A stretch of 45,643 nt of DNA from Escherichia coli (lineage in GTDB: Bacteria; Pseudomonadota; Gammaproteobacteria; Enterobacterales; Enterobacteriaceae), in assembly GCF_003334355.1 (NCBI RefSeq), contig NZ_QOWP01000030.1, one strand, 5' to 3'. The position numbers and the translations under genes are program-made. The notes under the pieces were generated by a model. That model was given only the letters and a program-made list of their open reading frames with translations. It did not search any database and was not told the origin of the DNA. This document shows positions 22,294 through 23,210 of the stretch, piece by piece (the first letter of the stretch is position 1; each line of letters opens with the position of its first letter).

Positions 22294-23010
22294 ATGAGAC
22301 TCGAGTTTTCAATTTATCGCTATAACCCGGATGTTGATGATGCTCCGCGTATGCAGGATTACACCCTGGAAGCGGAAGAAGGTCGCGACATGATGTTGCT
22401 GGATGCGCTTATCCAGCTGAAAGAGAAAGATCCCAGCCTGTCGTTCCGCCGCTCCTGCCGTGAAGGTGTGTGCGGTTCCGACGGTCTGAACATGAACGGC
22501 AAGAATGGTCTGGCCTGTATTACCCCGATTTCGGCACTCAACCAGCCGGGCAAGAAGATTGTGATTCGCCCGCTGCCAGGTTTACCGGTGATCCGCGATT
22601 TGGTGGTAGACATGGGACAATTCTATGCGCAATATGAGAAAATTAAGCCTTACCTGTTGAATAATGGACAAAATCCGCCAGCTCGCGAGCATTTACAGAT
22701 GCCAGAGCAGCGCGAAAAACTCGACGGGCTGTATGAATGTATTCTCTGCGCATGTTGTTCAACCTCTTGTCCGTCTTTCTGGTGGAATCCCGATAAGTTT
22801 ATCGGCCCGGCAGGCTTGTTAGCGGCATATCGTTTCCTGATCGATAGCCGTGATACCGAGACTGACAGCCGCCTCGACGGTTTGAGCGATGCATTCAGTG
22901 TATTCCGCTGTCACAGCATCATGAACTGCGTCAGTGTATGTCCGAAGGGGCTGAACCCGACGCGCGCCATCGGCCATATCAAGTCGATGTTGTTGCAACG
23001 TAATGCGTAA
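22294..23010 (+). CDS. sdhB: Succinate dehydrogenase iron-sulfur subunit
   Basis: 238-aa ORF with cysteine clusters CRxGxCGSDG and CILCACCSTSCP. Confidence 0.97.
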   Translation: MRLEFSIYRYNPDVDDAPRMQDYTLEAEEGRDMMLLDALIQLKEKDPSLSFRRSCREGVCGSDGLNMNGKNGLACITPISALNQPGKKIVIRPLPGLPVIRDLVVDMGQFYAQYEKIKPYLLNNGQNPPAREHLQMPEQREKLDGLYECILCACCSTSCPSFWWNPDKFIGPAGLLAAYRFLIDSRDTETDSRLDGLSDAFSVFRCHSIMNCVSVCPKGLNPTRAIGHIKSMLLQRNA

Positions 23011-23210
23011 TTAAATGTTGATGCCGGGGAAATCCCCCGGCTATTCAGGAAATCTTTAAAAACTGCCCCTGACACTAAGACAGTTTTTAAAGGTTCCTTC
23101 GCGAGCCACTACGTAGACAAGAGCTCGCAAGTGAACCCCGGCACGCACATCACTGTGCGTGGTAGTATCCACGGCGAAGTAAGCATAAAAAAGATGCTTA
23201 AGGGATCACG

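Follow-up and report, generated by a model that had tools for sequence, protein, structure and literature searches.

The best-known example of an intercistronic RNA element that stabilises the 3' end of an upstream message is the REP/BIME sequence of malE-malF, where the barrier raises the amount of the preceding mRNA. Long helices that are processed by RNase III are found in rRNA operons, in the early mRNA of phage T7 and in the rpsO-pnp leader, and a typical substrate of the enzyme extends over roughly two helical turns. In the leader of adhE, cleavage by RNase III is reportedly needed for translation from an occluded ribosome binding site, with less protein being made in rnc mutants (Aristarkhov et al. 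1996). The sucA RNA motif, an Rfam entry from other Proteobacteria, illustrates the presence of a conserved structured RNA upstream of sucA. The most direct precedent for the present study is the sdhB-sucA region of Escherichia coli K-12 (Cunningham & Guest 1998; for GlnZ: Miyakoshi 2022, Walling 2022). As relayed in PMC9731577 and PMC5371410, this region harbours three RNase III-specific processing sites (Cunningham & Guest 1998), and detection of the 10-kb read-through transcript was restricted to mutants of rnc or rne. The three sites are placed upstream of the target of the sRNA GlnZ. Literature data also describe a lowered level of SucA but not of SucB in an rnc14 strain, a positive effect of RNase III whose mechanism has not been elucidated according to PMC9032294.

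The spacer investigated here is contained in a window of 45,643 nucleotides, the whole stretch of E. coli DNA that was analysed, and it is flanked by sdhB and sucA, in line with the original prediction (Table 1). Its length of 200 nt compares with 300 nt in K-12. Both alleles share 100% identity between positions 23046 and 23210, a segment that includes the hairpins H2-H5, the GlnZ target, the internal transcription start site (TSS) and the Shine-Dalgarno (SD) sequence. They differ in the first ~35 nt (23011-23045), which contain hairpin H1 in the window and whose place is taken in K-12 by a 135-nt array of three REP elements. Both the 3' end mapped in K-12 and its coverage dip that depends on rnc fall within the part that the window allele lacks. 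The H1 allele was identified in 1761 of 5426 complete E. coli genomes, with a median of one copy per genome, and one third of the sequenced strains are without the array that is central to the end-mapping and RNase III data of K-12. Such REP-less strains offer a natural test of the separate roles of the REPs and of H2. The 200-nt allele is also carried by strain SMS-3-5, at 99.8% identity. The spacer is an already-studied region of cutting, stabilisation and regulation of the operon transcript, and our finding is in this respect real and largely known. What is new is of modest extent and concerns the map of a five-module leader, the recognition of H3 and H4 as selected RNA structures and of H2 as a family-wide invariant; in the literature examined for K-12, the five-hairpin architecture is not described. 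In our view, the Enterobacteriaceae share a modular, structured intercistronic leader of which the spacer is the E. coli form, with the roles of H1-H5 as proposed below, a reading to which we assign a probability of about 0.55 and in which the function of each individual hairpin, including that of H2 as RNase III site, is what we infer. The spacer would act at the level of the + strand RNA, in the sdhCDAB-sucABCD read-through transcript.

Table 1. Features of the sdhB-sucA spacer and its flanking genes, in coordinates of the window.
Feature	Position	Strand	Description
sdhB ORF	22294-23010	+	stop codon TAA at 23008..23010; from the ORF list and from the annotation in identical E. coli records
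H1	23023-23029 / 23035-23041	+	GCCGGGG/AAATC/CCCCGGC; starts 13 nt past the sdhB stop
H2	23048-23065 / 23081-23097	+	arms GGAAAUCUUUAAAAACUG / CAGUUUUUAAAGGUUCC; 18 bp and one bulged A; 15-nt loop; AU-rich
H3	23101-23106 / 23123-23128	+	GCGAGC / GCTCGC; 6 bp, 16-nt loop
Anti-SD segment	23131-23138	+	GUGAACCC; predicted anti-SD, conserved; complement of both GGUUCC (23092-23097) and GGGAUCAC in the SD region (23202-23209)
H4	23142-23149 / 23154-23161	+	CACGCACA / TCAC / TGTGCGTG; 8 bp, 5 of them G-C; RNA form CACGCACA/UCAC/UGUGCGUG
Internal promoter	23160..23176	+	extended -10 TGgTAGTAT at 23160-23168; TSS G23176, 35 nt before the sucA ATG
GlnZ sRNA target	23168-23177	+	UCCACGGCGA; pairs over 10 bp, including one G.U, with the seed 5'-UUGCCGUGGAAA-3'
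H5	23180-23186 / 23194-23200	+	TAAGCAT / ATGCTTA; loop AAAAAAG; within the purine-rich tract
SD sequence	23200-23205	+	AAGGGA; together with the sucA start the invariant block AUGCUUAAGGGAUCACGAUG in the alignment
sucA	23211-26012		start codon 23211-23213

The original prediction had listed three inverted repeats in the spacer, all of which are present as H1, H3 and H4 after small corrections of their coordinates, with the 6-bp version CCGGGG-AAATC-CCCCGG residing at 23024-23040 instead of 23027..23043. As a complete set the list falls short, since it misses H5 and the largest hairpin, H2, and the spacer RNA contains a total of five hairpins, all of which are conserved. That this structure exceeds chance is reflected in the comparison with shuffled sequences and in the count of perfect stems. 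The 220-nt spacer RNA folds with a minimum free energy (MFE) of -75.1 kcal/mol compared to -51.6 +/- 4.3 kcal/mol after dinucleotide shuffling (z = -5.46), a value that none of 200 shuffles matches, and it contains four distinct perfect stems of at least 7 bp. If nested stem and loop variants are included, 7 matches are found, whereas the same counting in 2000 shuffles gives a mean of 0.18 and none that reaches 7. H2, which is unique in the window, folds with -18.4 kcal/mol (z -4.2), and the corresponding values are -16.0 kcal/mol (z -3.6) for H1, where 6 of the 7 bp are G-C, -12.9 kcal/mol (z -3.0) for H4 and -5.7 kcal/mol (z -3.4) for H5. The core of H3 (-9.4 kcal/mol, z -1.8) is on its own not beyond chance, with 11 of 200 shuffles folding equally well.

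The same order of modules is found across 79 Enterobacteriaceae species, and no spacer is shorter than 198 nt. A covariance model detects a single site in the window, as it does in each of 78 further sequences. In a MAFFT alignment, 93.5% of the cells are paired and 10 pairs show compensatory changes, values that are reached in 0 of 500 shuffles. The numbers increase to 95.8% and 15 compensatory pairs in an alignment of 79 sequences that was fitted to the covariance model itself, where pairing drops to at most 52% when the partners are slid. RNAalifold applied to the MAFFT alignment missed H4 because the variable loops shift its arms out of register, which was mended by use of an explicit structure and the covariance model. 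Covariation supports a structured RNA for H4, H3 and the apex of H2, whereas H5 and a long-range helix between the anti-SD segment and the SD region are invariant and show no covariation signal in the alignments. A search of positions 22500-23700 against Rfam by cmscan at E <= 10 returned just two chance-level matches far under the gathering scores; the Rfam families known upstream of sucA in other Proteobacteria, the sucA RNA motif among them, are of unrelated architecture, and no family matches the window spacer at this threshold beyond the level of chance. Small reading frames were also considered and rejected as explanation: overlapping ORFs of 32 aa (+) and of 38 and 25 aa (-) exist, but no frame is conserved, since loop lengths differ by non-multiples of three across species and even between E. 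coli alleles.

At the place of the first module, between the sdhB stop and H2, a hairpin region with an MFE of -16 kcal/mol or below is located in all of the 78 sequences compared, which represent 76 species in addition to the window and a second allele of E. coli (median z -5.5), and these hairpins belong to unrelated sequence families, including the H1-type, a CCCTCTCC-type, REP-like and other versions. Hairpins of the H1-type are found at the equivalent place in Citrobacter, S. enterica arizonae and an Erwinia MAG. As in REP/BIME-stabilised messages, H1 is a stable hairpin right after the upstream cistron, at the site that is occupied by REPs in K-12, and it differs from these by the absence of the REP consensus, its occurrence about once per genome and its orthologues in Citrobacter and S. 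enterica arizonae. An assignment of H1 as REP/BIME or other repeat could be ruled out, as it is a single-copy element without REP consensus that does not align with the REPs replacing it. A stable hairpin that follows soon after a stop codon and whose position is conserved among relatives is what would be expected for an exonuclease barrier, and by analogy H1 most likely serves as such for the sdh mRNA. It would block 3'->5' exonucleases and thereby define and stabilise the 3' end of the sdhCDAB message, a task that in K-12 would be carried out by the REP array.

The second module, H2, resembles RNase III stalks in being a long helix with conserved arms and an insert of variable length in a spacer that is a documented target of the enzyme in K-12. 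In 78 sequences its arms are nearly invariant, with 94.6% of cells paired and a loop of 9-169 nt, and in other genera the helix is lengthened further by inserted palindromes. While compensatory changes are found in 2-3 pairs of the apex, the invariant main stem has no covariation support. Uncompensated C.A and A.C mismatches are as frequent as G.U pairs, with no strand preference, and the combination of conserved sequence with mismatches that are as common as wobbles points to a constraint other than, or besides, pairing. With 18 bp and a bulge, H2 is slightly short of the two turns (~20 bp) of an RNase III substrate, compared to 7, 6 and 8 bp in H1, H3 and H4, and it is the sole long, RNase III-sized duplex of the window allele. 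H2 is a candidate for an RNase III stalk. It would constitute the probable cut point that splits the transcript into its sdh and suc halves and in this respect would differ from known stalks, since it would separate two mRNA halves and release no stable RNA. The idea of the original prediction that structure in the spacer uncouples sdh and suc by processing is experimentally established in K-12, whereas its assignment to H1, H3 and H4 has found no support.

The central part of the leader is formed by H3 and H4. H3 shows 98.5% paired cells across 79 sequences, with a G-C to A-U swap in 15 and G.U pairs in 36 of them. Its covariation concerns 1-2 pairs and one exchange within the species, as the second E. 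coli allele carries GCGGAC/GUCCGC with an unrelated loop. For H4, each of the 6 core pairs displays compensatory changes, 96.8% of the cells in the 79 sequences are paired and G.U pairs are numerous, and the second E. coli allele retains the stem with a loop of 12 nt. As far as can be told from the alignments, both are hairpins that are maintained by compensatory evolution, and their frequent G.U pairs point to the + strand RNA as the relevant molecule. Since both are upstream of the internal start at 23176, they are only contained in read-through or processed transcripts, and their position and predicted thermodynamics suggest that they are most likely structural elements of the read-through sucA leader. 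By pairing of GGUUCC with GAACC, H3 can be extended to a form at 23092-23137 (-18.5 kcal/mol, z -4.0) that competes with the base of H2 and that could give the suc mRNA a 5'-terminal stem after processing. H4 in turn may keep the neighbouring GlnZ/Hfq target single-stranded, as its disruption in silico lowers the accessibility of the site from 0.72 to 0.40.

The final part of the leader would proceed from the GlnZ site to the purine-rich tract with H5 and from there to the SD sequence. The GlnZ site is conserved in the alignment, with the predicted unpaired probability of 0.72 stated above. The stem of H5 is invariant and 98% paired across 79 sequences; it adjoins the SD sequence, and the transcript made from the internal promoter has its 5' terminus 4 nt away from the start of H5. 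This promoter shows the hallmarks of the extended -10 class, with a TGn preceding the hexamer and a mapped 5' end within the typical downstream distance of 5-9 nt, in conjunction with a poor -35 element (GGCACG). A scan for consensus promoters returned 0 promoters, and the internal -10 was read directly from the sequence and a published TSS, which was placed at 23176 by use of what we take to be a 777-bp offset between genome versions. The start in question, at position 757894 of MG1655 U00096.2, is the only spacer TSS listed by Cappable-seq (PMC4782308 supplement). Matches to 'Psuc' in a preprint on UPEC quiescence refer to the expression plasmid pSucAB and not to a promoter. The GlnZ seed and its pairing at sucA were validated in E. 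coli by compensatory mutation, and a purine-rich stretch of 15 nt near the TIR is required for basal translation and for GlnZ repression (both PMC9731577). GlnZ repression of SucA was also described to depend on RNase III.

Other explanations assign different roles to the same hairpins. Following the original prediction, H1, H3 and H4 could act as partial intrinsic terminators, so that only some polymerases pass from sdh to suc. This would be consistent with the GC-rich stems of H1 and H4 (7-8 bp) and the 6-bp stem of H3, with the mention of 'internal termination' between sdhB and sucA in PMC6393394, and with the UAUUC following H1, a poor U-tract that might permit a few per cent of termination. 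However, a terminator scan of 22500-23700 returned 0 sites, the tails UAUUCAGG (H1), AAGUGAAC (H3) and GUAGUAUC (H4) contain no U run directly 3' of the stem, and the post-sdhB hairpins of the other compared species are equally devoid of U-tracts. Since transcription of sucABCD is said to start mainly at the sdh promoter, strong termination would also be counter-productive. The predicted ends in the spacer do exist in K-12, where Term-seq lists 3' ends in this area only at 758531, the dominant site located 5 nt past REP3 and 12 nt ahead of H2, and at 758707 (sucA +2), but none of them follows H3 or H4, which are both identical in that strain, whereas H1 is absent from it. None of the hairpins has the look of a terminator, H1 is probably not a real one, and we regard partial termination by any of the three as highly improbable. 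H3 and H4 might instead be sites of nuclease entry or recognition, either for RNase E in the AU-rich single-stranded linkers or for RNase III in a coaxially stacked extension of H3. The 15-nt arms of extended H3, with 80% complementarity and the energy of -18.5 kcal/mol, would suit the latter, and the 10-kb transcript is reportedly also stabilised in rne mutants. The core stems are, however, just 6 and 8 bp long, and their variable loops and freely covarying pairs are features of a generic hairpin rather than of a sequence-specific cleavage site, which makes such a role unlikely.

A more serious objection concerns the relevance of the K-12 data, since RNase III processing could be a property of the K-12-type REP/BIME alleles, in which case the REP-less window allele would remain uncut and H2 would have another role. 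Several observations are in line with this possibility: in K-12, REP1 and REP2 fold into an interrupted helix of ~30 bp that is longer than H2 and may be the real substrate, the REPs are three in number, as are the reported sites, RNase III extensively cuts a REP within GlnZ in vitro, and the RNase III-dependent loss of coverage described for K-12 is centred at 758515, within the third REP and not in H2. The dip is, on the other hand, of low resolution and just 28 nt away from H2, which is present in 79 of 79 sequences while REPs are lineage-specific, and the SucA-specific positive regulation by RNase III is more easily reconciled with a cut near the sucA leader. A paper on the capture of dsRNA by p19 contains no mention of the sdhB-sucA locus. 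On balance we find it doubtful, although well worth considering, that processing is confined to REP alleles and favour H2 as the family-wide candidate site. Finally, the palindromes could act as DNA, by binding IHF or Nac or as a component of the internal promoter, with RNA folding as a by-product. The invariant, non-covarying arms of H2, with mismatches that show no preference for a strand, would be compatible with this view, and so would the location of H4 at -34 to -15 of the internal promoter, exactly in its -35/spacer region, and reports in the literature of a suc promoter that is repressed by IHF and bound by Nac. Against it stand the compensatory changes of H3 and H4 and their G.U pairs, which on the opposite strand or in DNA would correspond to A.C, and the failure to recognise an IHF consensus by eye. 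The spacing of the H2 half-sites, which varies between 9 and 169 nt, is incompatible with a dimeric DNA-binding site and rules out such a palindrome as sole explanation. An action as DNA in place of RNA thus appears very unlikely, although both can co-exist.

Within the favoured reading of a modular leader, the arrangement of complementary segments suggests a further, rather speculative and on the whole unlikely function as a switch of sucA translation, in which RNase III triggers a change of conformation. As long as the RNA is uncut, H2 would sequester GGUUCC, and GUGAACCC would be available for pairing with GGGAUCAC in the SD region, whereas upon removal of the 5' arm of H2, the pairing of GGUUCC with GAACC would extend H3 and liberate the SD sequence. 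Such a switch would account for the decrease of SucA, and not of SucB, in rnc mutants and, if true, refolding after cleavage of H2 would supply the mechanism, missing so far, through which RNase III acts positively on SucA. Its closest precedent is the adhE leader, from which it would differ by a cut ~110 nt upstream whose action is indirect, in that GGUUCC is set free and can capture the anti-SD segment. The long-range helix between the anti-SD segment and the SD region is contained in the MFE structure and in the RNAalifold consensus, and it can form in 98.2% of cells, with all partner sequences being invariant. Among 77 sequences, the helix is predicted in 64, of which 44 show its collapse after removal of the 5' arm of H2, while unmasking of the SD is predicted in just 22 sequences. 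For the window, ViennaRNA calculations assign a probability of 0.88 to the anti-SD:SD pairing with H2 intact, where the SD is unpaired with a probability of 0.26. With a 5' end anywhere between 23055 and 23092, the former decreases to 0.02-0.05 and the latter increases to 0.5-0.7, and if GGUUCC is removed as well, the probability of the anti-SD:SD helix returns to 0.83-0.91.

The spacer of 200 nt that separates sdhB from sucA encodes an extensively structured RNA. The window comes from E. coli: positions 22900-23320 match several complete chromosomes of this species at 100% identity, and the annotation there names the flanking genes sdhB and sucA. The spacer RNA is predicted to fold with -75.1 kcal/mol, compared to -51.6 ± 4.3 kcal/mol in shuffled sequences (z -5.46), and it contains four distinct perfect stems of at least 7 bp, with seven stem/loop variants, nested ones included, against 0.18 expected by the same count. 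The three inverted repeats listed in the original prediction (H1, H3 and H4) were all recovered by sequence inspection, with H1 about 3 nt away from its proposed location, and the list proved incomplete since it had overlooked H5 and the largest hairpin, H2. Folded alone, H1 (-16.0 kcal/mol, z -3.6), H2 (-18.4, z -4.2), H4 (-12.9, z -3.0) and H5 (-5.7, z -3.4) are each more stable than shuffled sequences; taken singly, H3 (-9.4, z -1.8) is not beyond chance. The spacer matches no Rfam family. The three small open reading frames crossing it are very unlikely to be genes, because differences in loop length among species and E. coli alleles break their frames.

Features of the sdhB-sucA spacer in window positions
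Feature	Position	Sequence	Remark
sdhB end	23010		
H1	23023-23041	GCCGGGG/AAATC/CCCCGGC	
H2	23048-23065, 23081-23097	GGAAATCTTTAAAAACTG, CAGTTTTTAAAGGTTCC	18 bp, one bulged A
Small ORF	23056-23172 (-)		38 codons
Segment shared by H2 base and H3 extension	23092-23097	GGUUCC	
H3	23101-23106, 23123-23128	GCGAGC...GCTCGC	
Small ORF	23109-23186 (-)		25 codons
Small ORF	23131-23229 (+)		32 codons
Predicted anti-SD	23131-23138	GUGAACCC	
Partner of GGUUCC	23133-23137	GAACC	
H4	23142-23161	CACGCACA/TCAC/TGTGCGTG	
Predicted partner of CCACG upon H4 disruption	23158-23162	CGUGG	
Extended -10	23160-23168	TGgTAGTAT	
GlnZ target	23168-23177		complementary to seed UUGCCGUGGAAA
Segment of GlnZ target	23169-23173	CCACG	
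H5	23180-23200	TAAGCAT/AAAAAAG/ATGCTTA	directly adjoins SD AAGGGA
SD region	23202-23209	GGGAUCAC	
sucA start	23211		

The organization of the spacer is conserved. A scan anchored on proteins recovered the locus in 80 genome records, all of them GTDB species representatives and almost all Enterobacteriaceae. Both genes could be placed in 78, where the spacer spans 198-660 nt and the order of its modules is constant: a hairpin following sdhB, H2, H3, a conserved GUGAACCCCGG segment, H4, the target site of the small RNA GlnZ, and H5 with the Shine-Dalgarno (SD) sequence. A covariance model built on 31 sequences finds a single match in the window (23046-23213, 161.7 bits) and matches all other sequences searched. 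In a MAFFT alignment, 93.5% of cells are paired with 10 compensatory pairs, equalled by none of 500 shuffles; in the model-fitted alignment of 79 sequences, whose counts lean towards the structure it was fitted to, 95.8% are paired with 15 compensatory pairs, compared to at most 52% with partners slid. All six core pairs of H4 covary and G.U pairs are common, and in H3 98.5% of cells are paired, among them G-C pairs swapped for A-U and 36 G.U pairs; this abundance of G.U pairs in both hairpins argues for structures of the + strand RNA. H5 is invariant and thus uninformative in this respect. One record, CACSKA010000002.1, titled 'Chryseobacterium sp. 18061', contains a typical enterobacterial locus with all spacer modules, and its SucA N-terminus shows 89% identity to the E. 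coli one; mislabelling or contamination of the assembly is probable.

The proposal that H1, H3 and H4 act as partial terminators is not borne out by the data, as consensus scans of the spacer found no terminators (and no promoters) and K-12 Term-seq contains no 3' ends after H3 or H4, although both are identical in that strain. Its second part, an uncoupling of sdh from suc through processing in the spacer, was already established in outline by published work on K-12 but had been tied to the wrong hairpins. As related in citing papers, Cunningham & Guest (1998) described three RNase III-specific processing sites in the K-12 spacer, upstream of the GlnZ site (PMC9731577, PMC5371410), a 10-kb read-through transcript seen only in rnc or rne mutants, and the repression of an internal suc promoter by IHF. 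The locus is well studied and the novelty of our observations is low; of use are the map of modules, the evidence from covariation for H3 and H4, the finding that H2 is invariant, the polymorphism between H1 and REPs and a hypothesis on leader refolding.

From 23046 to the start of sucA the window is identical to K-12, whereas the preceding sequences are wholly different, with 35 nt containing H1 in the window and about 135 nt of three palindromic REP elements in K-12, whose spacer measures 300 nt. There, REP1 and REP2 are predicted to form an RNase III-sized duplex in place of two separate hairpins, which is missing from the window allele. Of 5426 complete E. coli genomes, 1761 have the H1 allele, at about one copy each, the remainder carrying REP arrays of varied length (spacers of 300, 349, 361 and 550 nt). 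The stretch from the sdhB stop to H2 has a folding energy of -16 kcal/mol or lower in each of the 78 sequences compared (median z -5.5). Its hairpins fall into unrelated families (H1-type, CCCTCTCC-type, REP-like and others), all of them lacking a U run downstream. Hairpins of the H1 type, CCGGGGAA...UUCCCCGG, are also found in Citrobacter, S. enterica arizonae and an Erwinia MAG. Such fixed position of interchangeable sequences is expected for a generic barrier to 3' exonucleases, which is also in line with the dominant K-12 3' end in Term-seq at 758531 (Adams et al. 2021 supplement; sdhB end confirmed at 758405 and sucA start at 758706 in MG1655), mapping 5 nt past the last of the three REP hairpins and 12 nt short of H2. 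On these grounds, H1, which is unlikely to be a terminator, can be read as a stabiliser of ancestral type for the 3' end of sdhCDAB, whose place REPs have taken in two thirds of E. coli. Polymorphism extends into the core, where a second E. coli allele class contains GCGGAC/GUCCGC with an unrelated loop as H3 and the same H4 stem with a 12-nt loop. About 1116 genomes fall into the 90-95% identity band for the core. The comparison (L003 and L004 from E. coli, L005 from E. albertii, L007 and L023) shows this class to be common to E. coli and E. albertii and to resemble sequences of Citrobacter amalonaticus and S. enterica arizonae, which suggests an old polymorphism or recombination.

The arms of H2 are almost invariant, with 94.6% of cells paired in 78 sequences, and enclose a loop of 9-169 nt, as fits a helix bracketing variable inserts; the same variable spacing excludes a dimeric DNA site. 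Since the arms lack covariation and contain C.A/A.C mismatches as often as G.U pairs, something appears to recognise the sequence of H2 in addition to its helix. In many genera, the loop harbours an imperfect palindromic repeat of about 127 nt (at 938-1072 of locus L009, also in L014, L021, L028, L032 and others), which in some Citrobacter (L060, L062, L006) lies inverted between the GlnZ site and H5. Each E. coli genome has 1-6 matches to it in unannotated intergenic positions (60-82% identity), which identify it as a dispersed repeat that we take to resemble ERIC/IRU elements.

Universally conserved and the sole long duplex of the window allele, H2 is a candidate substrate of RNase III, and we assign a probability of roughly 0.45 to its cleavage. 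If instead all K-12 sites were located in the REPs, the window allele may escape the enzyme altogether, as would be consistent with the mutual pairing predicted for REP1 and REP2 (30-110 of the K-12 spacer), which yields one interrupted helix of about 30 bp that is longer than H2, with the rnc-dependent loss of RNA-seq coverage centred at 758515 (PMC5371410), thus within the REP array, and with the cleavage of REPs by RNase III in vitro. In light of the conservation of H2, we consider such escape somewhat less likely.

Cleavage of H2 might also bear on the sucA leader. RNase III is required for GlnZ repression, and in rnc14 SucA is decreased and SucB is not (PMC9731577), an effect whose mechanism was stated to be not elucidated (PMC9032294). 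In the predicted structures, GGUUCC is claimed both by the base of H2 and by an extended form of H3, where it pairs with GAACC (-18.5 kcal/mol, z -4.0). The anti-SD can alternatively pair with the SD region, in a helix present in the MFE structure and the RNAalifold consensus. For RNA starting at or upstream of 23048, the partition function yields a probability of 0.88 for this helix with the SD 0.26 unpaired; for 5' ends at 23055-23092 the values are 0.02-0.05 and 0.5-0.7, and upon additional removal of GGUUCC the helix probability is 0.83-0.91. The helix is predicted in 64 of 77 sequences and lost in 44 of these upon removal of the H2 5' arm, which increases SD accessibility by more than 0.2 in 22 sequences and decreases it to that extent in none. 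As all partners are invariant, covariation cannot test this refolding. An unmasking of the SD upon loss of the H2 5' arm, as modelled here, seems rather improbable; if true, it would account for the drop that rnc mutants show in SucA specifically.

At the 5' edge of the GlnZ target, an extended -10 motif can be read in the sequence. With an offset between genome versions that we assume to be 777 bp, U00096.2 position 757894 corresponds to window G23176, at the 3' edge of the target, 8 nt downstream of the motif and 35 nt before the sucA ATG. This position is the one primary 5' end detected in the spacer by Cappable-seq (PMC4782308 supplement). Transcripts from this promoter would start 4 nt before H5, lack H1-H4 and retain two bases of the GlnZ target, from which we infer that control by H1-H4 and GlnZ concerns only read-through or processed RNA. 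Internal-promoter transcripts should consequently escape GlnZ, a point that we did not find stated in two GlnZ papers. The target has been validated by compensatory mutation, and 15 purine-rich nucleotides near the ribosome-binding site are required for both basal translation and GlnZ repression (PMC9731577). When H4 is disrupted in silico, CGUGG pairs with CCACG and the accessibility of the GlnZ site drops from 0.72 to 0.40, which suggests an insulating role of H4 in these models. A further dominant Term-seq 3' end falls on base two of the sucA start codon (758707; window 23212) and was not called Rho-dependent in the sole condition with a listed Rho score; devoid of a U-tract, it is located 36 nt past the internal start site, 12 nt past H5 and 3 nt past the predicted helix between anti-SD and SD.
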